Notes under the pieces: generated by a model
Database searches by the model: none
The model's input: the letters and a program-made list of their open reading frames with translations, nothing else
Told to the model about the DNA's origin: nothing
Position numbers and translations under genes: made by a program
Assembly (NCBI GenBank): GCA_965648935.1
Contig: CBFGIY010000001.1
Coordinates: 40,216 to 104,215, forward strand
Direction: 5' to 3'
DNA from: a candidate division WOR-3 bacterium
Lineage (GTDB): Bacteria > Hydrothermota > Tepidihabitantia > Tepidihabitantales > Tepidihabitantaceae
Length of the DNA stretch: 64,000 bases
Part shown: positions 737 through 29,578 of the stretch, in pieces
How positions within the stretch are numbered: position 1 is the stretch's first letter
Layout of the letters: each line of letters begins with the position of its first letter

Positions 737-737
737 C

Positions 738-1457
738 TCAACTGCCTCCAGTCCCGGCGCGCGAGTCGTAGACCACCGCGCCGTCTTCCATTCTCACCAG
801 CCGGTCAGCATAGGGAAACACGCGCGGGTCGTGCGTCACCAGCACCACCCCGCGCCGCGGGTCGCGCGACAGCCGCTTGAGCGTGTCCAGCACCAGCCGG
901 CTGGAATCGACATCCAGCGCCGAGGTCGGCTCATCGCAGAGGAGCACGGCCGGGTCGCTGACGAGTGCCCGGGCGATCCCGACACGCTGCTGCTGGCCGC
1001 CCGAGAGCTGGCTCGGCCGCGCGTCGAGGTAGTCGCCCATGCCCAGTTCCTCAAGTAGCTTCACCGCCGACTGCCGGGCGCTGTCGGTCAGCCGGCCGCC
1101 CTGCACCGCCAGCGCGATGAGCACGTTGTCCAGCGCCGACAGCGCCGGCACCAGCGCCGCCTGCTGGAACACGAATCCGTACTTCCGCAGCCTCAGTGTC
1201 GCGAGCTCGTCCTCGGACCGGCCGGTCACGTCCTCGCCATCAACCTCGATCCGGCCGTTGCTCGGGCTGAGGACCAGGCCCATCACGGTCAGCAGGGTGG
1301 TTTTACCCGAACCCGAGGGCCCGGCCAGCGCGGTCAGTTCCCCGGCGAAGACATCGAGCGTCGTTTCCTTCAGCACGCGCCGCACCACGCGGCCGTCCGA
1401 GAAGTCGCGCGCCACGCCGTCGAGGCGCAGCACCGCCCTGGCCGCGCTCGTCGCCAT
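738..1457 (-). CDS. ABC transporter ATP-binding protein (MacB/LolD type)
   Basis: Walker [13 protein letters not shown] signature LSGGQQQRV and Walker [12 protein letters not shown] are present. The start at MATSAARAV (ATG 1457-1455) overlaps the permease stop as ATGA. Confidence 0.85.
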
Positions 1458-3662: not shown

Positions 3663-3674
3663 GGCCCGCCGGCA

Positions 3675-7656: not shown

Positions 7657-7730
7657 GCGCCCGTAGCTCAGCTGGATAGAGCGGCAGACTCCGGATCTGC
7701 AGGCCACGCGTTCAACTCGCGTCGGGCGCT
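7657..7730 (+). tRNA. tRNA-Arg (anticodon CCG)
   Basis: The cloverleaf was folded by hand: acceptor GCGCCCG/CGGGCGC, D-stem GCTC/GAGC, anticodon stem GCAGA/TCTGC with loop CTCCGGA, T-arm ACGCG-TTCAACT-CGCGT, discriminator T. It is 74 nt. Confidence 0.85.
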
Positions 7731-11065: not shown

Positions 11066-12712
11066 CTACTCCGGGCTTCCCAGCCGGTTGACCGCCTCGG
11101 GCGCGACCAGTTCGTCGAACCTCTCCGGCGCGAGGCCGTACAGCTCGCCGGCCAGCTCGCGCAGCGACCTGCCCGTGCGCGCCGCCTCCTTGACCAGCGT
11201 CTCGGATTTCTCGTAACCCAGCTCGCCGACCAGCGCGGTCACGGTCGCGGTCGTGTTCTCAACGAACCTGCGGCAGCGCGACTCGTTCGCCTTCAGCCCG
11301 GCGACGCAGTGCAGCCGCAGGATGCGGCAGGCATTGTGCAGCAAGTCCAGCTCGTCCAGCAGGCAGGCCGCGATGAGCGGCATGAACTGGTTCAGTTCGA
11401 GGTTCCCGCCGGCTGCGGCCTGCGCGATTACCGCATCGAGGCCCATCACCATCAGCGCCGCCTGGGCAACCGCCTCGGGAATCACCGGGTTGACCTTGCC
11501 CGGCATTATCGTCGAACCGGCCTGGCGTTCGGGCAGCACGAGCTCGCCCAGCCCGGCCTCCGGCCCGGACGACAGCAGGCGCAGGTCGTTGCTGACCTTG
11601 AAAAGGTTCACGGCGCAGGCCTTCATTATTCCCGACGCCTCAACGAAAGCGTCGCAGTTCTGCGTCGCATCGACGAGGTTCTCGGCCCGGGCCAGGCCCA
11701 GGCCCGTGATCTCGCGCAGGATATCGGTCACCCGGAAGATGTAGCGCCGGGGCGCGCCGATGCCCGTGCCGATGGCCGTGCCGCCGAGGTTCACGGTGCG
11801 CAGCCGCTCGCCGCTCTTGAATACCCGCCAGCGGTCGCGCGCGAACGCCTCGGCGTACGCACCCATCTCTCTTCCCAGAGTGGTCAGCACGGCATCCTGC
11901 ATCTCGGTCCGGCCGACCTTCACGACCCGGGCAAACTCCCGCTCCCTGGCCTGGAACTCCTCCTGCAGCGCGACCAGTTCCTCTTCAAGCTCGGCCAGGG
12001 ATTTGAGCGCCGCGACCTTCAGCGCGGTCGGGTAGGTGTCATTGGTCGACTGGTGTCGGTTCAGGTCGTCGTGGGGCGACACGCGGCTGTAGTCGCCCTT
12101 GCGGCTGCCCAGTATTTCCAGCGCACGGTTCGCCAGCACCTCGTTGACGTTCATGTTGGTCGATGTGCCGGCCCCGCCCTGCAGCGCGTCGACCAGCACC
12201 TGGCTGTCGAGCCGCCCGGCCATCATCTCGGCGCAGGCCGCCTCGATCGCGTCGGCCTTGGCTTCATCCTCGCGCCAGGCCCCGAGCTCGCGGTTGGCCC
12301 GCGCGCAAGCCAGCTTCACGGCACCGTAGGCGCGCACGAGAAAAGAGTGAACCGGCCGGCCGGCAAGCGGGAAGTTCTCCAGTGCCCGCGCGGTGTGGAT
12401 GCCGTAGAGCGCCTCGGCCGGCACGCTGCGCTCGCCCAGGAGGTCGGCCTCGGTGCGCATCTGGGCACCGGCCCGGAACCGGCGAAACTCGCTGCTCACC
12501 AGCTCGGCCAGCCCGGGACCGACGTTCTCGCCGAGGACTGCATACTCGGTGTCGGCGACCACGGTCTCGGCCGGCTCGAGCCGTTCCTCGCCCACGCTCC
12601 AGAGGAAATCCCAGCGCGGCCCGGCGCGGCGGCACAGCCACAGCTTGGCCGGCTGGGAACGCACCAGCCTCTCCAGCGCGGTCCGAAACTCAGAAACAGA
12701 CGTCTCGCTCAT
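11066..12712 (-). CDS. Aspartate ammonia-lyase-like (fumarase/aspartase family) protein embedded in the hyd maturase operon
   Basis: Family signature GSTIMPGKVNP and the aspartase N-terminal block RTEADLLGERSVPAEALYGIHTARALENF. The ATG at 12712 adds an 84-aa N-terminal extension and a 23-nt overlap with hydG. The internal Met at ~12460 would give a canonical 464-aa protein. Confidence 0.75.
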   Translation of the reverse strand: MSETSVSEFRTALERLVRSQPAKLWLCRRAGPRWDFLWSVGEERLEPAETVVADTEYAVLGENVGPGLAELVSSEFRRFRAGAQMRTEADLLGERSVPAEALYGIHTARALENFPLAGRPVHSFLVRAYGAVKLACARANRELGAWREDEAKADAIEAACAEMMAGRLDSQVLVDALQGGAGTSTNMNVNEVLANRALEILGSRKGDYSRVSPHDDLNRHQSTNDTYPTALKVAALKSLAELEEELVALQEEFQAREREFARVVKVGRTEMQDAVLTTLGREMGAYAEAFARDRWRVFKSGERLRTVNLGGTAIGTGIGAPRRYIFRVTDILREITGLGLARAENLVDATQNCDAFVEASGIMKACAVNLFKVSNDLRLLSSGPEAGLGELVLPERQAGSTIMPGKVNPVIPEAVAQAALMVMGLDAVIAQAAAGGNLELNQFMPLIAACLLDELDLLHNACRILRLHCVAGLKANESRCRRFVENTTATVTALVGELGYEKSETLVKEAARTGRSLRELAGELYGLAPERFDELVAPEAVNRLGSPE

Positions 12713-14108
12713 CGCTCGTCCTTATCTTCTCTATGCGGTCCCGCACCTGTTCGCGCCGCTTCTCGTCCGGGATGCCGGCCAGCTCGCGCTCGATCAGCGC
12801 GAAGCCGGCCGCGCGCGTTTCCGGGCCGGCGTAGTCGACGAGGTACTCGGCCAGCGTGGCCAGAGCGTTGGGCGTGCAGTAGCGCTTGATGAACCCGGGA
12901 ATCGAAAACTCCATGAAGTGCTCGCCGGTGCGGCCCAGCCGGTAACAGGAAGTGCACCAGCTCGGGACGAACCCGTCGTCGATGAGCTCGCGCACGACCG
13001 CCTCGAGACCGCGCGTGTCCTGAATCTCGAACTGCTCGCGGTTCAGCTCCTGGCACTCGCCCTCGCGGCACTCCTGATAGGCGCCCAGCTCGATGCGCGT
13101 GCCGGCGTCAATCTGCGACACACCGAGGCGCAGCGCCTGGCGCCGTAGCTCTGGCCGCTCGCGCGCGGTCAGGATCAGACCGGTGTAGGGCACGGCCAGC
13201 CGGATCACCGCGATGAGCTTGAGGAAATCGGCGTCGCTGACAAAGTGACTGCGGTCCAGCGTGACATTCGATGCGACGTTCACGCGGGGAAAGCTGATGG
13301 TGTGCGGCCCGACCCCGAATCGCTGCTCAAGGTGAATCGTGTGATAGAGCAGGCCCATCACCTCGAACCGCCAGTCGGCCAGGCCGAAGAGCGCGCCGAT
13401 GCCGACATCGTCCACCCCGGCCTGCATCGCCCGGTCGTGGGCCAGAAGCCGCCACAGGTAGTCGCCCTTGCGGGTGTTGCCCGGATGGACCCGGCGGTAG
13501 GTCTCGTGGTGGTAGGTTTCCTGGAAGACCTGGTAAGTGCCGATGCCGACCGCCTTCATCGTCCGGTAGCCCTCGACATCGAGCGGCGCCGCGTTGATGT
13601 TCACCCGCCGTATCTCGCCCCGGCCGACCCTGGTCGAGTAGACGATGCGCACCACCCGCGCCATCTCCTCGGCCGAGTAGTCCGGATGCTCGCCCCAGAC
13701 CAGTATCAGACGCTTGTGGCCCTGGCTCTCGAGCGCGGCCAGCTCTCTGTGCAGCTCGGTATCGGACAGCGTCTTGCGCACCACCTCGCGGTTGGTGCAC
13801 TTGAAGCCGCAGTACGCGCAGTTATTGACGCACTTGTCGCCGATGTACAGCGGCGCGAACAGCACGATCCGGTTGCCGTAAACCGCTTCCTTGAGCTGTC
13901 GGGCGGCCTCGAACACCTCCTCCAGCAGCGCCGGCTCCTCCACGGCAAGCAGCGTCGCCACCTCTTCCGGTTCGAGCCGGTTCTTGGCCAGGCTGCGCGC
14001 GACAATCTCCCGCACCCGCGCCGGCTCGGGCCTGGCCCGCTCCAGCGTCTCCTGAATCCTGTCGTCGTCGATGAAGTCGACGGCCTCGGTCTTCCTTGCC
14101 GCGGTCAT
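12690..14108 (-). CDS. hydG: [FeFe]-hydrogenase maturase HydG (radical SAM tyrosine lyase)
   Basis: CVNNCAYCGF radical-SAM motif, a ThiH-like core, and the C-terminal CTSCYR auxiliary cluster motif. Confidence 0.85.
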   Translation of the reverse strand: MTAARKTEAVDFIDDDRIQETLERARPEPARVREIVARSLAKNRLEPEEVATLLAVEEPALLEEVFEAARQLKEAVYGNRIVLFAPLYIGDKCVNNCAYCGFKCTNREVVRKTLSDTELHRELAALESQGHKRLILVWGEHPDYSAEEMARVVRIVYSTRVGRGEIRRVNINAAPLDVEGYRTMKAVGIGTYQVFQETYHHETYRRVHPGNTRKGDYLWRLLAHDRAMQAGVDDVGIGALFGLADWRFEVMGLLYHTIHLEQRFGVGPHTISFPRVNVASNVTLDRSHFVSDADFLKLIAVIRLAVPYTGLILTARERPELRRQALRLGVSQIDAGTRIELGAYQECREGECQELNREQFEIQDTRGLEAVVRELIDDGFVPSWCTSCYRLGRTGEHFMEFSIPGFIKRYCTPNALATLAEYLVDYAGPETRAAGFALIERELAGIPDEKRREQVRDRIEKIRTSDERDVCF

Positions 14109-14455
14109 CTTTCCATCCCCCTGTCATCGCCGCGGGGTTCGCCTTCCGGCATCTGGTCTCTGACTTCGACCTCGTGCCCTCTGCCGTTCTTCTTCCTCAA
14201 TGCCGCCTTCACGCTCACGCCCGGTATCGAACCCAGCTTCCCGGTCAGGGCCCCGATTTCATCGTTCGTGCCGTCCACGATGACGGCCACGACCGACAGG
14301 TCCCTTTCCCGGTACGGGATGCCCATCCGCCCGACGACTATCGCGGCGTGGTCGGACAGCACCGCGTTCACCCGCGGCGCCGCGGCCAGGCGGTTCTCGA
14401 CAAACACCGCAACCACACCCAGCCGGTGCCCGGCTGCGATATGTGCTTCGCTCAC
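14105..14455 (-). CDS. TM1266-like small regulator of the iron-only hydrogenase system (NikR-C/ACT-like)
   Basis: The ~85-aa core (VVAVFVENRLAAAPRVNAVLSDHAAIVVGRMGIPYRERDLSVVAVIVDGTNDEIGALTGKLGSIPGVSVKAAL) resembles the family found upstream of hydG. It overlaps the hydG start as ATGA. Confidence 0.6.
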   Translation of the reverse strand: MSEAHIAAGHRLGVVAVFVENRLAAAPRVNAVLSDHAAIVVGRMGIPYRERDLSVVAVIVDGTNDEIGALTGKLGSIPGVSVKAALRKKNGRGHEVEVRDQMPEGEPRGDDRGMER

Positions 14456-14679
14456 TGCTCTTGCCTTTCTTTCAAAGCGTTCTCTGGGAAGCGCTCGAGG
14501 CTGGAACGCCCCGCCGGACTCAGGCGCGGTCTTCCGCCGCCCTTATCCCGGGACCAGGCTTCCGAATTGGGTCCTCCGCGCCGGCCCGGCCGGCCCGTCA
14601 GACAGCTCATCATACCCGGCCGGCCGGGCCGGTCAAGCAAGGTGCAGGGCGCGCGCCGTCAGCCCGGCCCCGCCATTCC

Positions 14680-14707
14680 TTGCCTGCAATTGAGCCAACG
14701 CTATAAT
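14680..14707 (+). promoter_or_regulatory. Sigma70-like promoter for the SPT-like/ACS operon
   Basis: -35 TTGCCT (14680-14685), 16-nt spacer, -10 TATAAT (14702-14707). A GGGAGG RBS lies 5 nt before the GTG at 14745. Confidence 0.5.
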
Positions 14708-14744
14708 CGCGCAGGCGTCAGATACCCTGTAACCGGGAGGCACC

Positions 14745-15929
14745 GTGGACCTGTTCGATAAATGCCGTCAGTTCGACATGATGCTCGGCTTCGTCCGCGC
14801 CCAGGGCCGGTTCTTCTACGGCCGCGACCTCGAGCCCGCGGCGTCGCCGGTCACGACCCGCGCCGGCCGCGAGCTCGTCAACCTCGGCTCCAACAACTAC
14901 CTCGGCCTGACCGACGACCCGAAGGTGAAAGCCGCGGCCATCGCCGCAGTCGAGCGCTACGGCACCGGCTCGGCCGGCTCGCGCCTGCTCACCGGCACCA
15001 CGCCCCTGCACCTCGAGATGGAGCGGCGCCTCGCCGAGTTCAAGCACGCCGACTCGGTCGTCTCGTTCTCGGCCGGGTTCATGGCGCTTTCGGCCACGGT
15101 TGCGACCCTCGCCGGCGAAAACGACCTCATCTTCTCCGACGAGCTCAACCACGCCTCGATAATCGACGGCTGCCGCCACTCCCGCGCGAAGACTGTTGTC
15201 TACCGGCACAATGACCTCGCCGACCTCGAATCAAAGCTCAAGGCCGCGCCGCCCGACGCGGCCCGGCTCATCGTCACCGACGGCGTCTTCTCGATGGAGG
15301 GCGACATCTGCGAGCTTCCCGGCCTGCACAAGCTGTCCCAGGCCCACAACTGCCGGCTGATGGTCGATGACGCCCACGCGACCGGCGTGCTCGGCCCGAC
15401 CGGCCGCGGCACGGCCGAGCACTTCGGGCTCGAGGGCAAAGTCGACATCACCTCGGGCACGCTCTCCAAGTCGATGGCCGCGGTCGGCGGGTTCACCGCC
15501 GCGCCGCGCACGGTGACCGACTACCTGCGATACAACGCCCGGATGTCCATCTTCTCGGCCAGCCTGCCGCCGTCCGTGCCCGCGACCGTGCTCGCCGCGC
15601 TCGAAGTGCTGTCGTCCGAACCCGGGCGCGTGGCGCGGCTCCACGCCAACTCGCGCTTCATCGCCGGGAGGCTCGTCGCCGACGGGTTCAAAACCGCCTA
15701 CCGCGGCACGCCGATACTGCCCATATACATCGGCGACGACGACAAGGCTTACCAGATGGCCGGCCGGCTCGAGCAGGAGGGCGTCTTTGCCAACCCGGTC
15801 GTGTACCCGGCCGTGCCCCGCGGCTCAGCCATCATCCGCATCAGCCTGATGGCGACGCACACCGAGGAACAGCTCGGCCGCGCCGCCGACAAGTTCCGGC
15901 TCGTCGGCCGGGAACTGGGGGTCATCTAG
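14745..15929 (+). CDS. Alpha-oxoamine synthase, serine-palmitoyltransferase-like (PLP-dependent; BioF/KBL/SPT/CqsA family)
   Basis: PLP-lysine block GTLSKSMAAVGGF, which is closest to the SPT TFSKSxGxxGGF. Also shows the AOS fold motifs NNYLGL, SGFMAL and DDAHATG. Confidence 0.8.
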   Translation: MDLFDKCRQFDMMLGFVRAQGRFFYGRDLEPAASPVTTRAGRELVNLGSNNYLGLTDDPKVKAAAIAAVERYGTGSAGSRLLTGTTPLHLEMERRLAEFKHADSVVSFSAGFMALSATVATLAGENDLIFSDELNHASIIDGCRHSRAKTVVYRHNDLADLESKLKAAPPDAARLIVTDGVFSMEGDICELPGLHKLSQAHNCRLMVDDAHATGVLGPTGRGTAEHFGLEGKVDITSGTLSKSMAAVGGFTAAPRTVTDYLRYNARMSIFSASLPPSVPATVLAALEVLSSEPGRVARLHANSRFIAGRLVADGFKTAYRGTPILPIYIGDDDKAYQMAGRLEQEGVFANPVVYPAVPRGSAIIRISLMATHTEEQLGRAADKFRLVGRELGVI

Positions 15930-17726
15930 ATGCCCGACACCATCTACCAGGCTTTCGCCGAGGTCGCCCGGCGCCACGCCGCGCGTCCCGCGCTGATGAA
16001 CAAGGTCGAGGGGCGCTACGTGCCGGTCAGCTACGCCGACCTCGCGCGCACGGTGGACGAGGTCGCGGCCGGACTGGCCGCGCGCGGCGTCAGGGTCGGG
16101 GACCGCGTCGGCATATACTCCTACAACCGGCCCGAATGGGTCGTCACAGACCTCGCCGTGGCCAAGCTCGGCGCGGTGCTCATCCCGGTCTACCACACCC
16201 TGCCCGAGGACGCGGTGCGCTACATCCTCAACGACGCCAGGGTCAGCCACCTCGTGGTCGAATCGCCCGACCTGTTCGCCGTGGTCGCGCGGGTGATGGC
16301 CGCGGTGCCGGACCTGACCGATGTCATCACGCTGTTCGCGCACGACCAGACCAGCCATACGGGCAAGTCCCTGTTCTCGTTCGAGCTGCTCCGGGCCGAA
16401 GGTGCCCGGGCGCTCGCCGCCGACCCCGGCCTGGCCATGGCGCACGAGCCGGGCCCGGACGACCTGTTCACGGTCTGCTACACCTCGGGCACGACCGGCG
16501 AGCCCAAGGGCGCGATGCTCACCCACCGCAACATCCTCTCCAATGTCATCTCCGGCGCGGCGCGGTTCGACATCAACGAGCGCGACGTCTTCGTGTCCTT
16601 CCTGCCGCTCTGCCATATGTTCGAGCGCACCTGCGGCTACTACACCGTGCTGCTCGTCGGCGGCTGCATCGCCTACGCCGAATCGACCCAGACCGTCGCC
16701 CGCGACGTCCAGGCCGTGAGGCCGACCGTGCTCATCGTCGTGCCCCGCGTGCTCGAAAAGGTGTACAACGTCGTGCGCGAGCGCGTGCTCACCGGCCCGG
16801 CCTGGAAGCGCTGGCTGATGGTCGAGTCACTGCGCGTCTACGGCCGCCACCACCGCCTCAAGTCGCGCAACCAGCCGATACCGTTCGGGCTCAGGCTCTC
16901 CCACTGGCTGCTCGGCCGGCTCGTCGTCAGAAAGCTCCACGCGCTGGCCGGCGGCCGGCTGCGCTACCTCGTGTCCGGCGGCGCGCCCCTGGACAAGCGG
17001 CTCGGCCGCATCCTGCGCAGCCTCGAGTTCAACATCTACGAGGGCTACGGCCTGACCGAGACCTCGCCCGTGGTCTGCTCGATGATGCCCGGCGACGAGC
17101 GCATCGGCACGGTCGGCAAGCCGATGGAGGACGTCGAGATACGCATCGGCCCCGACTCGGAAATCCTCGTCCGCGGCCCCAACGTGATGAAGGGCTACCT
17201 CAACAAGCCCGACGAGACCGCCAGGGTCATCGACGCCGACGGCTGGTTCCACACCGGCGACCAGGGCCGGTTTGACGAGCGCGGCAACCTCGTCATCACC
17301 GGCCGCATCAAGGAGCTCATCGTCAACTCCTACGGCAAGAACATCGCCCCGGTGCCGATCGAGCAGAAGCTCGCCTCGTCCGAGTACATCGAACAGGCGA
17401 TGGTCTATGGCGACCGCAAGCCCTTTCTTTCCGCGCTCATCGTGCCATCGCGCATCGTGCTCGAGGAGTGGTGCCGCGGCCAGGGCATCGACTGCGCCGA
17501 CTTCTCGCGCGCGCTCGACGAACCCCGCGTCGTCGCGCTCTACCGCGCCGAGGTGGAAAGCGCGCTCAAGGACTTCGCCCAGTACGAACAGGTCAAGGCT
17601 TTCCGGCTCATCCCCGAACCGTTCACGGTCGAAAACGGCCTCCTGACCCCGTCGTTCAAGCTGCGCCGGCCCCAGGTCTATGAAGCCTACAAGGAAGCGA
17701 TCGAGAAGCTCTACGAAGGACATTGA
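15930..17726 (+). CDS. Long-chain fatty-acid--CoA ligase (AMP-dependent synthetase)
   Basis: AMP-binding motif YTSGTTGEPKGAMLTHRN, plus the GYGLTE and GWFHTGD motifs. It is about 600 aa, FadD15-like. Its ATG immediately follows the AOS stop. Confidence 0.85.
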   Translation: MPDTIYQAFAEVARRHAARPALMNKVEGRYVPVSYADLARTVDEVAAGLAARGVRVGDRVGIYSYNRPEWVVTDLAVAKLGAVLIPVYHTLPEDAVRYILNDARVSHLVVESPDLFAVVARVMAAVPDLTDVITLFAHDQTSHTGKSLFSFELLRAEGARALAADPGLAMAHEPGPDDLFTVCYTSGTTGEPKGAMLTHRNILSNVISGAARFDINERDVFVSFLPLCHMFERTCGYYTVLLVGGCIAYAESTQTVARDVQAVRPTVLIVVPRVLEKVYNVVRERVLTGPAWKRWLMVESLRVYGRHHRLKSRNQPIPFGLRLSHWLLGRLVVRKLHALAGGRLRYLVSGGAPLDKRLGRILRSLEFNIYEGYGLTETSPVVCSMMPGDERIGTVGKPMEDVEIRIGPDSEILVRGPNVMKGYLNKPDETARVIDADGWFHTGDQGRFDERGNLVITGRIKELIVNSYGKNIAPVPIEQKLASSEYIEQAMVYGDRKPFLSALIVPSRIVLEEWCRGQGIDCADFSRALDEPRVVALYRAEVESALKDFAQYEQVKAFRLIPEPFTVENGLLTPSFKLRRPQVYEAYKEAIEKLYEGH

Positions 17727-21151: not shown

Positions 21152-22066
21152 CTACCGCAGGCGCGGCGCCAGGGCGCGCTCGAAGTAGTCGCGCGCCGCG
21201 AGCGCCGCCTCTTTCGGCCGCACCTCGAAGGTCAGCGTCGCCCTGGTCCGGGCAAGCATCGCCAGGAGCGGGACAAAGTCAATCCGGCCCTTGCCCGGGG
21301 CGAGGTGCTCGTCGCGCACCCCGTTGTTGTCGTGCACGTGGCAGTGGCACACGCGCGCGAGGTGCCGCCGAAAGAACTCCTGCTCGGCCGCGCGCTCGGC
21401 CGGCCTGAGGATGTTGGTATGCCCCAGGTCGTAGCACAGCCCGAGCCAGCCGCCCAGCATCCGGTCCAAGAGCCTCTGCACGAACGGGTAGCGGAACCCC
21501 CCGACATTCTCGATGCACAGCCGGGTCCGGCCCCGCGCATGGCCCTTCAGCTCGGCCAGGGCCGAACCGACCAGCTCGCGGTAGAAATCCGGGAAGTAAT
21601 CGTGCGGGTACACGTACCCCGCGCCCTGCCCGTAATGCATCTCGAACCCGAGGTGCAGCACCGCCTTGGCGATGCCTGAGTCCCGGCACTGGTCCAGCAG
21701 CCGCTTCGTCTCGGCCACGCCCGCGGCCACGACCCGCCTGCTCGGCACGAAGAACGAGGGTCCCTCGATCGCGTGCACCGCCAGCGTCAGCCCGAGCCGC
21801 ACAGCCGCGGCCCGGATGCGCCTGCGCTCCCGCGCCCGTTCGAGCTGCTCCGCGAAATGCCGGTTCCCGAGGTTCAGCTCCAGCACGGGAAAGGCGTTCG
21901 CCGCGGCGAACTCGATCGCCGCGACGATGTCGTCGAAGTCGAAGAGAATCTGCAGGCCCAGGCGCGAGCGTATGGCGTCTGCCGCGTGCACGCCCGATTC
22001 TATGGAAGTCCTCCCCGCCGTCAATTCGGTTTGGTTTTCTTTCGCGTCAAGTCCACGGATTGACAA
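21152..22066 (-). CDS. Sugar-phosphate isomerase/epimerase (xylose-isomerase-like TIM barrel)
   Basis: AP-endonuclease-2/xylose-isomerase-like TIM-barrel blocks (LHLGFEMHYGQ, LCIENVGGF, LCYDLGHTNI, HVHDNNG). Confidence 0.7.
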   Translation of the reverse strand: MSIRGLDAKENQTELTAGRTSIESGVHAADAIRSRLGLQILFDFDDIVAAIEFAAANAFPVLELNLGNRHFAEQLERARERRRIRAAAVRLGLTLAVHAIEGPSFFVPSRRVVAAGVAETKRLLDQCRDSGIAKAVLHLGFEMHYGQGAGYVYPHDYFPDFYRELVGSALAELKGHARGRTRLCIENVGGFRYPFVQRLLDRMLGGWLGLCYDLGHTNILRPAERAAEQEFFRRHLARVCHCHVHDNNGVRDEHLAPGKGRIDFVPLLAMLARTRATLTFEVRPKEAALAARDYFERALAPRLR

Positions 22067-22067
22067 G

Positions 22068-22439
22068 TCAGGGCGTCGGGTCGGGAATCGAAAGCACCTG
22101 CAGGCGCAGTGCGTCGAGCACGGTCTTCTTCAGCTCGCGCGCAATCCACTTGTTCTCGACCACCATCGCCTCGCGCCGCAGGGTCTCGCCCGTGAACCGC
22201 CGCTTCTTCTTCCACACCTCGCGGCAGAAATTCAGGTACCCGATGTAGGTGTGGGTCGGCACCCCGGCCTCGCCGAGTACCTCCTTGGCCTTGTTCTCCA
22301 GTTCGGCCAGCTCCTCCTGCACCTCGGTTTGCTTCGCGACCATCCGCTCGCGCCGCGCATCCACGAGCTTCTTGATGGTCTCGGTATTGTACTTCAGATT
22401 GTAGTTGTAGACGCGGTCGACCCCGGACTTCACTCCCAC
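22068..22439 (-). CDS. Hypothetical lysine-rich coiled-coil protein
   Basis: GTG start is preceded by AAGGAG. The -35/-10 (TTGACA/TAGAGT) lies at 22532-22560. No family recognised. Confidence 0.5.
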   Translation of the reverse strand: MGVKSGVDRVYNYNLKYNTETIKKLVDARRERMVAKQTEVQEELAELENKAKEVLGEAGVPTHTYIGYLNFCREVWKKKRRFTGETLRREAMVVENKWIARELKKTVLDALRLQVLSIPDPTP

Positions 22440-22531
22440 GAGTACGCTCCTTTCCCTGCACGCCGCAGCGGCAAGCCAGCCGCCGCCGCGCGCGCCTCAA
22501 CCAGTCCTGAAAACGATGCCATAACGCCCCG

Positions 22532-22560
22532 ACTCTAGCGAAATCAGGCCGGCCTGTCAA
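22532..22560 (-). promoter_or_regulatory. Sigma70-like promoter for the 22068..22439 gene
   Basis: On the minus strand: TTGACA, 17 nt, TAGAGT. Confidence 0.45.
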
Positions 22561-22870
22561 CACCCGACAACCCGCTTACCTCCCGCCGCCCAACCCCTCA
22601 ACCAACTAACCAACCAGCCCAACTCTCATACCGACCACCCTTGCATCTAACCATATAACCATCAACTACTTATTCAACCAAGTACTCATAGGTAGGGGCT
22701 AGCCCCCACACTAGCCCCCCGGCAGTACACTAGGCTGAATGACAGACTAAACTAATAGCGATACAGCTCGCCGATAGGGTAGCTATACGATGCGCTGATT
22801 ACCGGCCTGCCATTAGGCCAACCCATCAGGCATTCCATCAGCCAGCCGGACCAATACCTTACACAGAAGC
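22561..22870. other. Strand-asymmetric C/A-rich, G-poor, low-GC non-coding stretch containing the palindrome GGGGCTAGCCCC
   Basis: No ORF on either strand. The plus strand reads caacccctcaaccaactaaccaaccagcccaactc..., with the palindrome at 22695-22706 and a second CTAGCCCCCC copy. The composition differs from the ~70% GC flanks. Confidence 0.5.
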
Positions 22871-23188
22871 ACCAGTGGTTTGTATGCCTTGTGCTATGCT
22901 CATTCATTCGAATTACTTACGGCTCGGTCACTCGATTCAGACCGATGCTGCGGCGTCCGGCCGAGCCGTGGCGCCCATCAACCTGCCGCTTGACGCGAGG
23001 CTTCCCAGCAAAACCACGCCGCCGGAGTCCGCTTCCCCGGCGACTCGTGCCAGTCCGTCAATCTGCCCGGCTTGCTGCCTTCGGCCAGCGACCGCAGTGT
23101 TGTCTGCTCCCCGCCGACCGACGTGCCGACCCACCACAGCGAGCGAGCCGGCGGCAGATGCGCCGCCGGCTCATAGAGACCGCATTGC

Positions 23189-25003
23189 CTATCGGGTCTT
23201 CACCGCCTTCTTGACCCAGCTTTGTCCGCCAGACTCCAGACTGAACAGGTAGATTCCCTTGGGCACGACGTGACCTCTCTCATCTCGCCCGTCCCATAGC
23301 ACCTGATGGACTCCGCCCACTGCAGTCCCCTTGCTCAGCTCTCGAACGGCCACTCCGGCAGCGTCCAAGACTCGCAGACTGAAGACCGCATTTGCTGGAA
23401 CGCTGCAAGTCAGCCGGATGCTCCTGCTGAAGTGGCTCGGCCTGACATCTACTAGCCCGACTGCGGCGCGACTCGTCCCTGGGGCGCCTGACTCGTCGAC
23501 GGCAACTGTCTCCGTCCCGAAGCGGAAGACTGACGTAGAGCGCCTCGTACCCTCGCCATTTATGGCTAGAACGGACCAGAAGTACGTGGTGTTGTTCCTA
23601 AGCGGTACGACGCTGCCGTAATTGAACGACGTCCCAGTGGAACTACCCACTGTCACCTGCGGTGGATTCTGAGTGTCCAAGTTGATGTAGTACGACGTGG
23701 CACCAGCGGCGGCCTGCCAAGTCATTGTCCCTCGGGTCGCCACGCCTACGGCGTTGTTGACTGGCGTGAGCAATTCGAAGGGGCCAGGCCCGAGGGGAGC
23801 GGTCACGAAGTAGAACCTGCTATTGCACTCTCTCTGTCCTGCGCTATTTCTCGCAACAACGTACCAGTAGTATGTTCGACCTGGAAGACAGGAGTAAGGG
23901 GTTGATGTCCCCGTGACATTGCGAAGGAATCCTGGAGGATTCGTAAGCCCGAGGTAGACATCATAGCTCGTGGCACCCGATGAAGACGCCCAACGCAACG
24001 TACCAGTGGCCGGTAACTCACGCGAACCGTTTGCTGGGGAGGTCAGGTCAAATGCGCCTGGAGCAGCAATGACCGTGCTAAAGCTGAACACAGCGTTGCA
24101 CTGCCTGCTACCTGAGCTGTTTTCCGCAATCACACGCCAGTAGTATGTCTGACCATTATCGCCCGAGTATGTGGTGGAAGTCGTCGGAGCGGTCACGGTC
24201 CTGAGGTACGGAGGCGGATAGGCCGTGCCGAAGTACACCTTGTAGCGCTCTGCATTTGAGGATGTTCCCCACCGCAGCGTCCCCGAAGTTGGCTGGTTCG
24301 TGGCGCCGTCAGTAGGTGATGTGAGACTGAATGGCCCAGGTGCCGGCTGGATACGAACTGCCCCATTCACATACACTGCGATGCGATTAACCCCCATCGT
24401 ATCACTACCGTTCCAGATGTTCACCTTAGCAACGTTGTTGCTGGTGTTCCAGTTTATGGAACTCGAAGGCTTGGTGATGGACCAGAACCTCCAGGTCTCA
24501 TCCAAGTAGGGCGTCGTACCAGAAGAGCTATTTATGCTGATCTGGGCGCTCGCGTTGCCTCCCTTTGCCGTTAGAAGCGCTACCACATCGACATCATCAC
24601 AGCTCCCGTAGCCGGTCATGTTTAGGTTGTAGTACTCAACCGCGCCACCTGTGACCGGTATCCGCCAGCAATACGGGTTGCCGCTGATCCACGATATCCT
24701 CCCCACCGTGGTGTTGCCGGTACGCCTGAGTGATCCATTCCCGTTTGGATTAGTACCAGTGATTTCCAGAGCTCCTGTACTCGTGTTGATGACTGCCTGC
24801 TGGCTGAAGTCATCGAACGAACCGTCAGGCAGGTTGCCCTGCCCGTCGACCGGCAACGCAGGCTGACGTGACTCCCCGACAGGCAGGTCAAACCTGAGCG
24901 TAACCTTGCCGTTTCCTTCATCCGCCACGACCACCGGCTGAACGACTATGGCGTTCTCGATGCCGGCCGCTACGAGCATGAGGGCAATCATGCCCACGAT
25001 CAT
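23189..25003 (-). CDS. Secreted protein with three tandem ~85-aa fibronectin-III-like repeats and a T9SS/FlgD-Ig-like C-terminal sorting domain
   Basis: ATG 25003 is preceded by GGGAGG. The signal peptide is MIVGMIALMLVAAG. Three repeats follow the pattern LTSP.NG....TGTLRW.SSSGATSY.VY.G...PP..L..VT...T.Y......TYYW.V.A.NS.G.R.C..F. The C-terminal tail is GVHQVLWDGRDERGHVVPKGIYLFSLESGGQSWVKKAVKTR. GC is ~52-58%, against ~70% elsewhere in the window. Confidence 0.7.
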   Translation of the reverse strand: MIVGMIALMLVAAGIENAIVVQPVVVADEGNGKVTLRFDLPVGESRQPALPVDGQGNLPDGSFDDFSQQAVINTSTGALEITGTNPNGNGSLRRTGNTTVGRISWISGNPYCWRIPVTGGAVEYYNLNMTGYGSCDDVDVVALLTAKGGNASAQISINSSSGTTPYLDETWRFWSITKPSSSINWNTSNNVAKVNIWNGSDTMGVNRIAVYVNGAVRIQPAPGPFSLTSPTDGATNQPTSGTLRWGTSSNAERYKVYFGTAYPPPYLRTVTAPTTSTTYSGDNGQTYYWRVIAENSSGSRQCNAVFSFSTVIAAPGAFDLTSPANGSRELPATGTLRWASSSGATSYDVYLGLTNPPGFLRNVTGTSTPYSCLPGRTYYWYVVARNSAGQRECNSRFYFVTAPLGPGPFELLTPVNNAVGVATRGTMTWQAAAGATSYYINLDTQNPPQVTVGSSTGTSFNYGSVVPLRNNTTYFWSVLAINGEGTRRSTSVFRFGTETVAVDESGAPGTSRAAVGLVDVRPSHFSRSIRLTCSVPANAVFSLRVLDAAGVAVRELSKGTAVGGVHQVLWDGRDERGHVVPKGIYLFSLESGGQSWVKKAVKTR

Positions 25004-25428
25004 GCGTACCTCCCTAGTCTTGCGCCCACCGCACCAGCGTGCGCTTGCCTGCGTCTCGGCTCGGTGCCGCCGTGATGGACTTCTTGGTATGTCGCATCGG
25101 GCAACAGAATGCACAGAGCGTGCCAAGCGGACACGAGGACGAAGTCAAAGGCCAAAAGCCAAAACTCAAATGCCAAATCGACCGAGGAACGAGGTCATCC
25201 CGAGGGAATCGAGGGACCTTGCCCCGAGAGCCTGGCCCGCAACTGTCACCGAGGAGTGACGGGAGGTGTAACCGGGCGGTTACGGGCGGGGCGTTTGCGA
25301 AGCGGTGTGAATGAGGCTAACGGATGGGTGAGTGGGTGCTGGAATCGCGGGCTGGACAGGCCGAACTGAGTGCCGGCGGCTCTTGGCGTGGCCCAGACGC
25401 GCCCCTGCGGGGACGCAGTGCACTTCGT

Positions 25429-25752
25429 TCAGAGTGACATCGGGCGAGGCAGCAATGCCGCGACATACTGCTCCTCGGCCTCTGCCAGCACCTCGTCCCG
25501 GAAGTACGGACTGAGGAACTGCGGCGTGTTCAGGTCCACCTTCCGCCCGAGAATCGCCGACAACTCCTGTTCCATGTCGAAGTACGCCAACCCCGGCACG
25601 TGCCCGGGCTCGAACTCCACGAGCACGTCCACGTCGCTGTCCGGTTGGAAGTCCTCACGCAGTGCCGACCCGAAGAAGGACAGCCGGCGGATGTGGTGTC
25701 GCCGGCAGAACTCCGCAACGCGCTCGCGGTCGACATTGAGGCTGATACTCAC
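25429..25752 (-). CDS. Minimal nucleotidyltransferase (MNT/MntA-like antitoxin domain), orphan
   Basis: Nucleotidyltransferase fold motif GS...DSDVDVLVEF. There is no intact HEPN partner downstream. Confidence 0.65.
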   Translation of the reverse strand: MSISLNVDRERVAEFCRRHHIRRLSFFGSALREDFQPDSDVDVLVEFEPGHVPGLAYFDMEQELSAILGRKVDLNTPQFLSPYFRDEVLAEAEEQYVAALLPRPMSL

Positions 25753-25782
25753 GCCAGAGGATATGCCGACGGCGAGGCCGCG

Positions 25783-27138
25783 TCAAGACGCGTCGGCCGC
25801 GATGCCGAGGCGTTTGAGGATGCGGTGCAGGCTCGGGCGCTCGATGCCGAGCAGGCGCGCGGCGGCGGTGATGTTGCCGTGGGCCTCGGCCAGCGCCTTT
25901 TGGACCGCGTGGCGCTCGGCCTCGTCGACGACGGCCTTGAGCGTGCCGTCAGCCACCGGTGCCTCACTACCGTCGAGGAAGGTCTTGAGTTCAGCGACGT
26001 CGACCGTCTGCGCCTCGGCAAGCACGACGACGCGCTCCAGCAGGTTGCGCAGCTCCCTGACATTGCCCGGCCACTCGTGCGCCGCCAGCAGCGCCACGCC
26101 GTCTTGCGATATGCTGACACGCCGGTTGTGACGGAGGCTGTACCGGTCGAGAAAGAACTCAACCAGCGCAGGGATGTCATCGCGCCGCTCGCGCAGCGGC
26201 GGCACGCGGATGGCCACGACGTTCAATCGGTGATACAGGTCTTCGCGGAAGCTCCCGGCCTTGACCGCGAAAGGCAGGTCCTTGTTGGTCGCGGCGACCA
26301 CCCGCGCGTCCACGCTCAGGGCCTGGTTGCCGCCGACCCGCTGGACCTCGGCGTTCTCCAGGAACCGTAGCAGCTTGGCCTGCGCGGCCAAACTCATATC
26401 GCCAATCTCGTCGAGGAACAGCGTCCCGGTGTCGGCCTCCTGCAGGCGTCCCTTGCGCTGGGCCGACGCGCCGGTGAACGAGCCCTTCTCGTGGCCGAAC
26501 AGCTCGCTTTCGATGATGTCCCGGCTGATTGCGGCGCAGTTGAGCGCGACAAACGGCCCGTCTGACCGCAGGCTCTGCAGGTGCAGGGCGCGCGCCACCA
26601 ACTCCTTGCCGACCCCGCTCTCGCCGGTCACGAGCACGCTGGCCGTAGTCGGCGCGGCCCGCGCGATGAGCTCACGCACGCGCCGCATCGCCGCGCTCTC
26701 CCCAATCATCCGGAACCGGTCTTCCACCTCGGCCTTGAAGTGCGCCACCTGCCGCGCAAGCCTGCCCCGCTCGATGGCGTTGCTGACCGTCACGCGTATC
26801 CGGTTGGCGTCGGGCGGCTTCTCGAGGAAGTCGTATGCGCCGAGCCTCAGCGCCTCCACTGCTGCCTTGATGCTGCCCTGCCCGGACAACATCACCACCG
26901 GCAGGTTCGGCGCAATCTCCCGGACCCGCCGCAGGACCTCCAGCCCGTTGATGTCCGGCAGCATCAGGTCCAGCATCAGCGCATCGGGCACCCGCTCGGT
27001 CACCGCCTTCACGCCCGAGCCGCCGTCGGTGAACGCCTGTGCCTCCCAGCCGGCCTGCGTCAGTATCCGCCTGAGCGCATCGGCCAGCCGCGGGTCATCG
27101 TCCACGACATAGACAAGCATTGGTCTCACTTCAGGCAT
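25783..27138 (-). CDS. Sigma54-dependent response regulator (NtrC family)
   Basis: REC domain with DLMLPD, an AAA+ sigma54-interaction domain (GESGVGKE, GAFTGA-like GSFTGA, ESELFGHEKGSFTGA) and a C-terminal Fis-type HTH. Confidence 0.85.
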   Translation of the reverse strand: MPEVRPMLVYVVDDDPRLADALRRILTQAGWEAQAFTDGGSGVKAVTERVPDALMLDLMLPDINGLEVLRRVREIAPNLPVVMLSGQGSIKAAVEALRLGAYDFLEKPPDANRIRVTVSNAIERGRLARQVAHFKAEVEDRFRMIGESAAMRRVRELIARAAPTTASVLVTGESGVGKELVARALHLQSLRSDGPFVALNCAAISRDIIESELFGHEKGSFTGASAQRKGRLQEADTGTLFLDEIGDMSLAAQAKLLRFLENAEVQRVGGNQALSVDARVVAATNKDLPFAVKAGSFREDLYHRLNVVAIRVPPLRERRDDIPALVEFFLDRYSLRHNRRVSISQDGVALLAAHEWPGNVRELRNLLERVVVLAEAQTVDVAELKTFLDGSEAPVADGTLKAVVDEAERHAVQKALAEAHGNITAAARLLGIERPSLHRILKRLGIAADAS

Positions 27139-27151
27139 AGCAGTGCAACCT

Positions 27152-29578
27152 CTATGCCACGACCTTCGATACGGGCAGGACGAACCGGAACGTCGCGCCC
27201 TTGCCCGGTTCGCTTTCGACTTCCACTCTGCCGCCGTGGTCCTCGGCCACCTTGCGCACGATGGTCAGACCCAACCCGGTGCCGCCGGCCTTGCGCGTGA
27301 AGAACGGCTGGAACAGCTTGGCCAGGTAATCGGGTGGAATCCCTGGGCCGGAATCCGTTACAGCTACCACGACTTCAGCCGCGGACTCAGCCCGCCGCGT
27401 CGCCACCGCCAGCCGACCCTTGCCCCCCATCGCGCCGACCGCGTTGTTGACCAAGTTGCCCAAGGCCCGGACCACCTGCTCTTCGTCCAGTTGAACTGCC
27501 GGCAGGCCTTCGGCCAAGTCCAACTTGAGTTCGATATCTCGCAGGCTGGCGACGCCCAACTCATCAAGTGCACGCCGCACGACGGCGTTGATGTCCTTCG
27601 CCTCAAGTCGCGGCGGCTCGAAGTCAGCCAGCCTCATAAAGCCATCCGTCATCTTCGCCAGCCGGTCAACTTCCTCCTCAATCACCTTCGCCCCATCCGG
27701 GTCCACGCCTTCCATCGCCTGCGCGGTCAGCCGTATCGTACTCAAGGGCGTCTTGATGCCATGCGCCAGCCGCTGGGCAACCGGACCCCAAGCCCCAACC
27801 TTGCGAGCGTACTCGACCGCGGCAAGGTCCTCAAGACTCAACAGGTACCCGCCCAGCCGCAGGCGCGACAGCGCGGCCCGAAACGTCCGCTGTACCCCAT
27901 CGACCTCCAGCACGACATCTGCGACCGCTCGCGGCAACCTGCCTTCCTTGACCTTAGGAAACTCCGCGCGCAGGGACGCGAATGACGGCTGCGTCAGCAG
28001 ACCCTCAAGAACCCCGGTCCTCACACCCTTGGGCAGCACAAGCAACTCCGTTGCCCGTTTGTTGATGGATGTAACCCGCCCGCGACTACTGAACATCACG
28101 ATGCCGGCCCGCTCGACCATCCCGCGTGTCACGTAACGCACGAACTCGCGATAAGAGGCGCGGGAGTACAGCAGAGCGGTCGCGGCCAGCAGAAGCAGTG
28201 CAGTGGCTGTGGAAGCAGCCCACGGCCACGGGAACGGCAGCGGTATCGCAACCAACTGGTAGAATTGCCAGCGTGGAATCGGTGCAACTCCTGCGCGACC
28301 CGACGTAAGTTCAGTAACTCCGTCGTGTACCATGAACCCTCCGGGTCTGCCAGCGCTGCGCCGAACAGGAACCACGCGCCAGTCACTCTGGATCGCCCCA
28401 CCTTCTGCGGCCGACGTTCTACGTCGAGTGGCCGGATCCCACACCAGCAGATGGCCATCCCGCGTGGACACGAGAATCTGCTCGGCAGCCCCGGGGATGA
28501 TGTATCCGAGCCACCACAGGTGTTCAAGCTGAACGCCGGCCGGGGTCGAGGAAACCGTTCGCAGGTTCAGGTCTCGTACCACGACCCTGTCTCTTTCGAT
28601 GGTCACAATATCCGAGACGCCGTCACCTGTTGCGTCCAGCGTGACGAAACTGCTCGTGGAGTTGCGGACAGGAACACCCCGCAAGACCGTCCCTTTCTCC
28701 GGGTCGATTACCATCAGACGGTCGACGCTGTCTGATGCCCAATTGCTGCACGTATTCGCCACGAGCACCTGGCCGCCGTCGTCTGGCGACTCGGCCAAGG
28801 CAATCGAGACATTTGCTGCCGAGCTATCGTCCTCGGCAGGGATGCTCCATCGCAGACCACCTCGATCGTCGAAACTGAAGACGTACCCGATATGGTCTGC
28901 GAACCCATTCTCGACACAGCCGTTACACGGCGCACTGCCGCCAACGTATGTTTCCGGTCGCCCGTCCCCATCGACATCTCCGACAGCAAGTGCCCAAACC
29001 TGCGTGCCCATCCCGAACCGCCATAGCCTCTCACCGGTCACCAGATCAACTGCTGTTACGCTGCGCGGCTGCCACTGCCAGGCGAATCCCGAGACGACGC
29101 CCGCGACCATCTCCTTGACCCCGTCACTGTCCAGGTCTGCGAACGCGGCGTGCGGGATTCCACCGTCATACTGCCGTTCGCCCTTCTTGGGAGGCGCATC
29201 CACCACGAACCGGCGCAATCGCCTACCGTGGACATTCTCGACGAACACAAACAGCGACCCGGGGACGGCGGCAGTGACCACGATGTCCGGGACCGAGTCA
29301 TCACCCAGGTCAACAGCCCAGGCGGTAGAGGTGGACGAACCCCGCGGCAGGTAGCTGTCGTGTGACAACAGGAACCTCCCCTCCACATCACGGGCGCTGG
29401 CAATGTAGTTACAGACTCCATACCGCTCGTCCGACGAGTCTCCGTCGATGTCGACGGCTGCTACCGCATAGCTGATGATGTTCGCGTCCGCAATCCGGAC
29501 TACGTACCGCGGCTTGCGCTCGCACCGGACTGCGGCGACGATGAGCAGGACTGAAACAGGGAGTATCTTCCACCCCAT
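27152..29578 (-). CDS. Sensor histidine kinase with a periplasmic FG-GAP/integrin-like beta-propeller sensor domain
   Basis: The N-terminal periplasmic region has repeated DxDGDG/DSDG and VGD-DGDGRPE motifs. It is followed by a TM and a HisKA H-box HGIKTPLSTI, then a HATPase_c domain (N, G1 and G2 boxes). Confidence 0.8.
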   Translation of the reverse strand: MGWKILPVSVLLIVAAVRCERKPRYVVRIADANIISYAVAAVDIDGDSSDERYGVCNYIASARDVEGRFLLSHDSYLPRGSSTSTAWAVDLGDDSVPDIVVTAAVPGSLFVFVENVHGRRLRRFVVDAPPKKGERQYDGGIPHAAFADLDSDGVKEMVAGVVSGFAWQWQPRSVTAVDLVTGERLWRFGMGTQVWALAVGDVDGDGRPETYVGGSAPCNGCVENGFADHIGYVFSFDDRGGLRWSIPAEDDSSAANVSIALAESPDDGGQVLVANTCSNWASDSVDRLMVIDPEKGTVLRGVPVRNSTSSFVTLDATGDGVSDIVTIERDRVVVRDLNLRTVSSTPAGVQLEHLWWLGYIIPGAAEQILVSTRDGHLLVWDPATRRRTSAAEGGAIQSDWRVVPVRRSAGRPGGFMVHDGVTELTSGRAGVAPIPRWQFYQLVAIPLPFPWPWAASTATALLLLAATALLYSRASYREFVRYVTRGMVERAGIVMFSSRGRVTSINKRATELLVLPKGVRTGVLEGLLTQPSFASLRAEFPKVKEGRLPRAVADVVLEVDGVQRTFRAALSRLRLGGYLLSLEDLAAVEYARKVGAWGPVAQRLAHGIKTPLSTIRLTAQAMEGVDPDGAKVIEEEVDRLAKMTDGFMRLADFEPPRLEAKDINAVVRRALDELGVASLRDIELKLDLAEGLPAVQLDEEQVVRALGNLVNNAVGAMGGKGRLAVATRRAESAAEVVVAVTDSGPGIPPDYLAKLFQPFFTRKAGGTGLGLTIVRKVAEDHGGRVEVESEPGKGATFRFVLPVSKVVA

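Follow-up and report, generated by a model that had tools for sequence, protein, structure and literature searches.

A low-GC gene for a predicted secreted protein in a candidate division WOR-3 bacterium: a probable accessory cassette behind a conserved sigma-54-type promoter and leader

What kind of element is the low-GC feature that interrupts the genome of an uncultivated candidate division WOR-3 bacterium at about 22.5 to 25.8 kb of the DNA analyzed here? This DNA, hereafter the window, comprises 64,000 nucleotides (nt) of contig CBFGIY010000001.1 (GenBank assembly GCA_965648935.1), and the feature centers on a gene for a 604-amino-acid (aa) predicted secreted protein. A preliminary description had taken positions 22440 to 25780 for a horizontally acquired island carrying a cargo gene of the type IX secretion system (T9SS). 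What it observed was confirmed in part, and its interpretation is partly supported. With moderate confidence, we favor a narrower reading, in which the low-GC feature is a gene-sized accessory cassette (∼23173 to 25055) in a regulated, swap-prone expression slot.

The dip in GC content was real. In 300-nt sliding windows, GC content was 0.53 to 0.59 over positions 23400 to 24900 and 0.50 to 0.53 over 22500 to 22950, with values of about 0.65 to 0.72 elsewhere and about 0.68 to 0.72 in the immediate flanks. At the first, second, and third codon positions of the low-GC gene (GC1, GC2, and GC3), it was 0.527, 0.544, and 0.661, respectively. This GC3 was the minimum of the window, ∼3.9 standard deviations below the mean of 0.856 for the other credible window genes (n = 55; standard deviation, 0.050; minimum, 0.726). 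Recalculated codon usage was hence not uniform, and the gene has the atypical composition expected of an acquired island. When it was recoded with the synonymous frequencies of the window, expected GC3 and GC were 0.855 and 0.651 (observed, 0.661 and 0.577), so that amino acid bias makes up a minor part of the dip and the rest is synonymous. Codon deviation was greatest in four- and sixfold families; for Pro, CCA and CCT together accounted for 57% of codons in the low-GC gene versus 10% in the host. Reduced GC3 was also seen in the sensor kinase gene upstream (27152 to 29578), with 0.73 overall and 0.695 in the part encoding the periplasmic FG-GAP domain, and likewise in the related genomes L001 and L004 introduced below.

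The gene and the slot in which it lies have the following limits.

23189 to 25003, minus strand: low-GC gene for the 604-aa predicted secreted protein; ATG preceded by GGAGG, open reading frame (ORF) intact
23173 to 25055, minus strand: segment replaced in L004 (blastn), the cassette proper, consisting of the gene and at most 53 nt of leader
23145 to 23172, minus strand: GC-rich hairpin GAGCCGGCGGC-N6-GCCGCCGGCTC right after the stop codon, the 3' edge of the slot, shared with L004 (alignment)

These limits were obtained by comparison with L004, a WOR-3 metagenome-assembled genome (MAG) found by searching species-representative genomes with the kinase, which is 93% identical at the amino acid level between window and L004. 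By blastn, L004 and window positions 37277 to 25796 were collinear (87% identity) as far as the 3' end of the regulator gene that follows the kinase gene. Next came the equivalent of window 25285 to 25093 (palindromes and promoter) at 78% identity, ∼3.8 kb of unrelated DNA, and then, once more, the final 100 nt of the regulator gene, now joined to the equivalent of window 25285 to 25056 (83 to 89% identity). This second promoter copy was followed by 869 bp of unrelated DNA, after which homology restarted at window position 23172 and continued to 19875. Since homology to L004 ends at 25056 and resumes at 23172, the variable unit spans ∼23173 to 25055; the region from 22.5 to 25.8 kb did not behave as one insertion. 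Promoter copy 1 in L004 was followed by a 145-aa ORF and a gene for a 734-aa protein with a TIGR04183 tail (41.6 bits), and copy 2 was followed by a gene for a GH16 glycoside hydrolase (1.8e-20). The three occupant genes had GC3 values of 0.656 to 0.747, versus 0.85 to 0.88 for the neighboring regulator gene and 123-aa ORF. Because L004 holds other genes at the same site, the low-GC gene behaves as accessory and exchangeable, and the same gene was not found at this locus across the clade, as far as this one relative represents it. What stays constant is a frame of promoter, leader, and terminator; the genes enclosed by it differ between close relatives. Over L004 positions 12270 to 17550, the regulator 3' end, palindromes, and promoter were tandemly duplicated with near-identical enhancer copies, and an IS3 OrfA plus truncated rve fragment abutted promoter copy 2, with the truncated IS3 exactly at its junction.

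In agreement with the preliminary description, no integrase or tRNA was found near the slot; the nearest tRNAs lie at 7657 and 33114. Other mobility genes and direct repeats were likewise not found at its boundaries in the window. The hexamer GAGCCG occurs at both cassette edges and was considered as an integron-like recombination site, but the 3' flanks of other family loci were unrelated, and a 6-mer is compatible with chance. A search of metagenomes for the palindrome pattern found nothing and so added no further close relatives, and no exact matches of window proteins were found in assemblies. In the kinase homologue search, the next matches after L004 were 26 to 28% identical; the lineage is sparsely sampled.

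Upstream of the coding sequence lies an ordered set of regulatory features.

27152 to 29578, minus strand: sensor histidine kinase, 808 aa, with a periplasmic FG-GAP/β-propeller-type domain (HATPase_c, 5.5e-29; HisKA; FG-GAP_3, 3.4e-9; Pfam)
25783 to 27138, minus strand: NtrC-type response regulator/sigma-54 activator, 451 aa (Response_reg, 9e-27; Sigma54_activat [PF00158], 1.4e-69; HTH_8)
25283 to 25268: inverted repeat GTAACC-N4-GGTTAC, candidate activator-binding site
25260 to 25245: inverted repeat GTCAC-N6-GTGAC, candidate activator-binding site
25110 to 25125, minus strand: sigma-54-type −24/−12 promoter TGGCACGCTCTGTGCA, the unique −24/−12 site in 64 kb
25004 to 25098, minus strand: 5' leader of ∼95 nt, its start placed from the promoter position
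25072 to 25057, minus strand: leader hairpin CGGC-GGCACCGA-GCCG
25035 to 25031, minus strand: pentamer GGTGC, complementary to the hairpin loop
25014 to 25010, minus strand: Shine-Dalgarno sequence GGAGG

The 425 bp between a gene for an MNT-type nucleotidyltransferase and the low-GC ORF contain, in minus-strand order, the inverted repeats, a T-rich tract, the promoter, the leader, and the ribosome-binding site. Promoter TGGCACGCTCTGTGCA has the −24 GG and −12 GC at canonical spacing and is conserved in seven related upstream regions; YGGCACR-N4-GTGCW was present in both L004 copies and upstream of genes for homologues of the 604-aa protein in the genomes L001, L003, L011, and L012. We refer to these homologues as the FN3 family, after their fibronectin type III (FN3)-like repeats. 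Both inverted repeats lie ∼125 to 165 bp upstream of the promoter, and their arms did not vary among the window and the two L004 copies of the promoter, consistent with a role as activator-binding sites. The translated regulator contains a GSFTGA loop, and its adjacency points to it as the cognate activator of the promoter. An upstream TTG start, which would yield a 645-aa protein, is unlikely to be used because it is located before the predicted transcription start.

The leader was conserved beyond close relatives. A hairpin of the form YRGC-[G/U]G[C/U]ACCGA-GCYR stood ∼55 to 65 nt 5' of the start codon in every family gene, including that of L008, a host with 42% GC; the hosts sharing it span 42 to 68% GC. 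In eight leaders the stem was 100% paired, with compensatory changes in two of four pairs, and 8 of 500 shuffles attained its score. The pentamer GGUGC, ∼30 nt downstream of the hairpin, was also conserved and complementary to the loop sequence GCACC; just two variants occurred, each a C-to-U change in one of the elements, and both remained wobble compatible. Minimum-free-energy folds disagreed between a GCACC/GGUGC loop-loop contact and a long-range helix. A covariance model of the leader matched only the family genes and L004 promoter copy 2, which precedes the GH16 gene. The family leader that persists there suggests that the L004 slot formerly held an FN3-family gene, since replaced; the FN3-family gene is probably the older occupant of the slot, not a recent arrival. 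One weak further match (L012, 399 to 472; 18.6 bits; E ∼0.005) lay upstream of an HNH-like ORF in a restriction-modification pair. Two other assignments were discarded: the hairpin itself as a sigma-54 promoter (GC at the wrong spacing) and the motif GCACCGAGC, with two further copies in the window, as a general promoter element (∼1.7 copies are expected by chance, and the covariance model finds no more leaders). From about the predicted transcription start, some family leaders contained a (CAGA)n microsatellite, with 5 copies in L003 (2452 to 2471), 8 in L011 (1311 to 1342), and at least 6 in L008 (1 to 27); the window has none. It may represent a contingency-type length polymorphism.

The 604-aa protein has the following parts.

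Residues ∼1 to 19: putative signal peptide (hydrophobic N terminus MIVGMIALMLVAAGIENA; canonical signal peptide in homologue P0003)
Residues 23 to 40, nt 24884 to 24937: invariant segment PVVVAxEGNGKVTLRxDL
Residues 62 to 220, nt 24344 to 24820: β-sandwich resembling carbohydrate-binding modules (CBM-like)
Residues 221 to 313, 314 to 404, and 405 to 497, nt 23513 to 24343: three FN3-like repeats
Residues ∼521 to 604, nt 23192 to 23443: FlgD-Ig/T9SS-A-like C-terminal domain

The ORF and its ending (...SGGQSWVKKAVKTR) were as described previously, as was the presence of three tandem repeats; their length of 91 to 93 aa exceeded the ∼85 aa proposed. Tandem β-sandwich units of ∼90 aa are indeed present, with pairwise identities of 40 to 54%. 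They appear FN3-like by resemblance only and fall short of the gathering thresholds of hidden Markov models (HMMs): their matches to Ig_Rha78A_N (19.2 bits; cutoff, 27.4) and GH85_C (18.1 bits; cutoff, 27) were subthreshold, the PDB Fn3-like structure 3mpc was matched at an E value of 0.019, and homologues gave faint fn3 matches. The C-terminal domain reaches the end of the protein behind an N-terminal Sec-type signal, as in T9SS type-A cargo. The sorting domain claimed for it stood in part: the isolated tail passed Pfam FlgD_ig (42.7 bits; cutoff, 27), the sole Pfam domain above threshold in the protein, and stayed below the cutoff of the T9SS type-A model TIGR04183; Por_Secre_tail (PF18962) was not among its matches. 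According to a review, some T9SS C-terminal domains are labeled as FlgD_ig superfamily.

The N-terminal domain is rare, with 14 matches at E ≤ 0.001 among 1.84 billion representative proteins. Its relatives join it to varying counts of FN3-like or other repeats, the number of repeat units differing between homologues, and the kind of tail is constant. The closest non-self homologue showed 49% identity across the entire protein and 58% within the N-terminal domain, and homologues aligned with the 604-aa protein across all domains; homologue P0007 carries Por_Secre_tail. The search found no near-identical copy, and no donor lineage could be identified from it. The Lys-rich tail had been judged foreign in flavor. 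However, family tails end in KKVVKTE, KKVVRLE, KKMVMLR, RKMVKTH, or RKMVKAD, so that such an ending is a family trait and no sign of foreignness. The contrast had been drawn with three other supposed cargo proteins of the window (5451 to 7568, 58143 to 59696, and 59718 to 61268; an LVIVD-repeat protein and two others), whose tails do end in ARFAVVR, RRFVVVR, and RRVVLVP. None of these tails matched Por_Secre_tail/TIGR04183, FlgD_ig, or CHU_C even at E ≤ 10; the contrast therefore rests on unverified comparators, and their sorting signal, if present, is outside the recognized types. PHROG matches were negligible. The segment PVVVAxEGNGKVTLRxDL is the most conserved stretch of the family yet is modeled as disordered (predicted local distance difference test score [pLDDT], <50); a role in docking, anchoring, or strand donation is conceivable.

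Family loci in other genomes differed in their surroundings. In L001 and L002 (ENA), the homologue lies behind an FG-GAP kinase and a sigma-54 activator, with TGGCACGGTCCGTGCT upstream and two small secreted ORFs in between. The order kinase-regulator-promoter-homologue is kept between the window and L001 at identities of 33% (kinase), 49% (regulator), and 49% (cargo), from which it follows that the cargo has diverged no more than the regulators. The two ENA contigs are identical over kinase, regulator, and cargo and have entirely different genes before position ∼4 kb (positions 1 to 4000; thrS-infC-rpmI-rplT versus TrmB/DUF4389), reflecting either a strain-level rearrangement beside the module or a chimeric assembly. 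In L003, L011, and L012, the neighbors include SurE, a ribosomal-protein-like ORF, and restriction-modification genes, and CGGCACG-N4-GTGCT is found upstream of the family gene in all three. L009 has a weak sigma-54-like site only.

Composition was unusual throughout the family. GC3 of the family gene and of its neighbors was 0.66 and ∼0.86 in the window, 0.675 and 0.78 to 0.85 in L001, 0.69 and 0.72 to 0.81 in L011, 0.70 and 0.70 to 0.79 in L012, 0.64 and 0.62 to 0.79 in L003, and 0.40 and 0.30 to 0.37 in the 42% GC host L008. By this comparison, GC3 of the family is drawn to the middle in each host. In a likelihood test of codon tables, all FN3-family genes fitted flat, lower-GC tables best; the window gene fitted its own host worst among the backgrounds tested, and the regulator gene fitted its own host best. 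By their near-unbiased codon usage, the occupant genes are assigned to an accessory pool that circulates horizontally or is weakly constrained. Flat usage fits both a pool moving between hosts and persistently weak compositional pressure, two readings that it does not separate.

On either side of the slot lie the stretches in which the island boundaries had been placed.

22068 to 23144, minus strand: conserved downstream block with ∼700 nt of noncoding DNA (G/T-rich on this strand), a sigma-70-like promoter, and a 123-aa ORF
23044 to 23018: terminator-like hairpin with T run
22560 to 22532: sigma-70-like promoter of the 123-aa ORF (promoter scan)
22068 to 22439: orphan 123-aa ORF (one homologue cluster only)
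25320 to 25795, minus strand: MNT insertion of ∼475 bp, outside the cassette and absent from L004
25429 to 25752, minus strand: solo gene for an MNT-type nucleotidyltransferase (NTP_transf_2, 2.5e-12)
25786 to 25758: sigma-70-like promoter of the MNT gene (promoter scan)

The C/A-rich spacer lies within a 1-kb block (22131 to 23130) that was 90 to 99% identical to L004 per 100 nt; the upstream flank was 87% and the downstream flank 60 to 80% identical. The spacer itself was 92% identical, with flanks of 87% and ∼73%, and is thus no island boundary. Such identity points either to recent recombination across the block or to a strongly constrained sequence, perhaps a shared 3' untranslated region or noncoding RNA. 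Rfam gave no match over 22000 to 25900, and the folding z score of the spacer (−2.9, minus strand) derives in part from the terminator hairpin. Just 5' of the sigma-70-like promoter of the block (minus strand), GGTTGGTTAGTTGGTTGAGGGGTTGGG was noted.

Nor does the MNT gene bound an island. It belongs to an independent insertion of ∼475 bp; in L004, the regulator gene continues directly into the palindromes. The insertion swaps the last codons of the activator (IAADAS* in the window, IAALSSESD* in L004), separating the activator gene from its presumed binding sites and displacing it by ∼475 bp from the enhancer. An MNT-type gene is present as the preliminary description had it, but the decayed partner that it reported is largely the enhancer and promoter of the cargo gene. 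In the ∼110 nt left downstream of the MNT gene, no HEPN remnant or HEPN-like reading frame was found. The MntA model scored 44 bits (cutoff, 60), less than is needed for an MNT-HEPN (type VII) toxin-antitoxin assignment.

Several explanations other than the cassette have to be weighed. That the dip is an artefact of the amino acid composition of a Ser/Thr/Asn/Gly/Tyr-rich repeat protein, or that the ORF is no real gene, can practically be dismissed. GC1 is low and Ser, Thr, and Asn are enriched ∼2- to 3-fold in the product, but amino acids explain only the step from ∼0.68 to 0.651, and the one from 0.651 to 0.577 is synonymous; the ORF, moreover, is intact, has a GGAGG ribosome-binding site, and has homologues that align over all domains. 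A single acquired island from 22440 to 25780, bounded by the C/A-rich spacer and by MNT plus a decayed partner and importing a foreign cargo, is very improbable as well. It would account for the low GC content of both spacer and gene and for the absence of the gene from L004, and MNT-type genes are often mobile. Yet L004, which lacks the gene, retains the spacer and the 123-aa ORF at 90 to 99% identity; the stretch of 230 bp separating MNT from the gene is regulatory DNA that L004 conserves in two copies; MNT sits in the end of the regulator gene as an indel of its own; and its supposed HEPN remnant was not found.

Unlikely, but deserving closer attention, is that the gene is a vertical resident, already in place at this promoter when the L001 lineage split off, lost or replaced in L004, and never transferred. 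Its low GC3 would then be gene specific, for example through rare expression, weak selection, or weak biased gene conversion on AT-biased mutation. The shared synteny with kinase and regulator in L001, the equal divergence of cargo and regulator, the family-specific leader kept before GH16 in L004, flat codon usage in homologues everywhere, and the reduced GC3 of the kinase sensor domain all agree with such a history. A long stay in a 68% GC genome, however, should have shifted GC3 toward the host unless it were actively held down, and in the 42% GC host the homologue exceeds its neighbors in GC3, which looks like regression to a pool mean and not one-way mutational drift. The family is also patchy, occurring beside restriction-modification genes and in other unrelated contexts, and turnover of the locus was demonstrated in L004. 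Horizontal acquisition as originally proposed keeps part of its ground: the gene is foreign-looking in composition and absent from the same site in L004, but recent acquisition is doubtful because a 49% identical homologue stands behind the same kinase/regulator pair in the distant L001 and because the leader was kept in L004.

Several observations weigh against the accessory cassette in a regulated slot, which we nevertheless prefer. L004 is the only close relative recovered, and the duplication in this MAG could reflect either a true rearrangement or faulty assembly. All seven promoters read GTGC at −12 (consensus, TTGC), no sigma-54 gene was seen in the window, and a sigma-70-like promoter lies farther upstream in L003 and L011. 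Of the five other loci whose upstream DNA can be read, three (L003, L011, and L012) have no kinase and regulator genes next to the family gene, so that such pairing is not a requirement. As to export, the tail scored 18.3 bits with TIGR04183 (E, 0.0017; cutoff, 23) and has PSHF where tails usually have a PNPF motif, and none of PorK/L/M/N, SprA/Sov, PorV, and PorU was found among the window proteins scanned. Finally, no donor can be named from codon usage, since flat usage fits any lower-GC background, as weak selection would also yield.

Comparison with known systems placed the parts of the locus more precisely. T9SS type-A cargo proteins of Bacteroidota and other FCB bacteria share with the 604-aa protein a signal peptide, modular β-sandwich passengers, and a terminal β-sandwich of ∼80 aa at the C terminus. 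Homologue P0007 and the L004 slot protein match Por_Secre_tail/TIGR04183; the window protein differs in passing the related FlgD_ig only. Because the L004 slot protein passes TIGR04183, the lineage appears to use T9SS-type tails; our literature search found no paper on T9SS in candidate division WOR-3. The N-terminal domain is CBM-like in fold, resembling the β-jelly rolls of CBM36/6/35/61, with ∼10% sequence identity and no Pfam family. NtrC-family two-component systems drive sigma-54 promoters via upstream activator sites. The window resembles them in its regulator (receiver, AAA+, and helix-turn-helix domains) with a GAFTGA-type loop, its GG-N10-GC promoter, the paired inverted repeats upstream, and the T-rich tract before the promoter. 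It differs in the GTGC at −12, in the FG-GAP β-propeller-type sensor of the kinase, and in its target, a single surface-protein gene that differs between sister genomes.

Replacement-type flexible genomic islands include, for example, loci for surface antigens that are exchanged when their conserved flanks recombine. The slot is like them in its conserved flanks, its nonhomologous, lower-GC, surface-related occupants, and the lack of an integrase or tRNA at the site, but it is a single-gene unit. Its breakpoints fall between the regulated promoter/leader and the terminator, so that incoming genes would inherit the regulation. With integron cassettes it shares promoterless genes exchanged behind a fixed promoter, whereas integrase and attC-like sites are absent, the 3' hairpins of the family are mutually unrelated, and the family gene has its own promoter in other genomes.

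Taken as a working model, the parts could act as follows. The FG-GAP kinase would sense an extracytoplasmic signal, for which a glycan or surface cue is a plausible guess, and would phosphorylate the NtrC-type regulator. Bound at the palindromes (25283 to 25245), the regulator would activate sigma-54 RNA polymerase at TGGCACGCTCTGTGCA, giving a transcript composed of the conserved structured leader and the coding sequence of the 604-aa protein. The protein would be exported by Sec and then probably by a T9SS-like pathway via its FlgD-Ig/type-A-like C-terminal domain, so as to display the CBM-like β-sandwich, which may bind glycans, on a stalk of three FN3-like repeats at the surface. A bolder extension, in which we place little confidence, is that the sigma-54 promoter and ∼80 nt of leader constitute a portable, previously undescribed cis-regulatory unit, a recombinase-free "expression socket" of the WOR-3 lineage for swapped genes encoding secreted proteins or proteins with T9SS tails. 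The loop G(C/U)ACCGA could then pair with GGUGC ∼30 nt downstream, as a kissing loop or a long-range helix. If this were true, every gene swapped in would come under the one sensor kinase.

The locus is known in kind: a gene for an accessory surface protein, with atypical codons, at a position whose content changes between close relatives. Accessory-gene replacement and lower GC content in accessory genes are both common, so current understanding is not overturned. What had been a vague low-GC island becomes, in an uncultivated WOR-3 bacterium, a defined unit of sensor kinase, sigma-54 activator, and a promoter/leader frame with differing content. The locus also draws attention to an uncharacterized CBM-like domain family and to a candidate leader RNA motif, and it offers a concrete example of how accessory surface proteins may be exchanged and their regulation kept.

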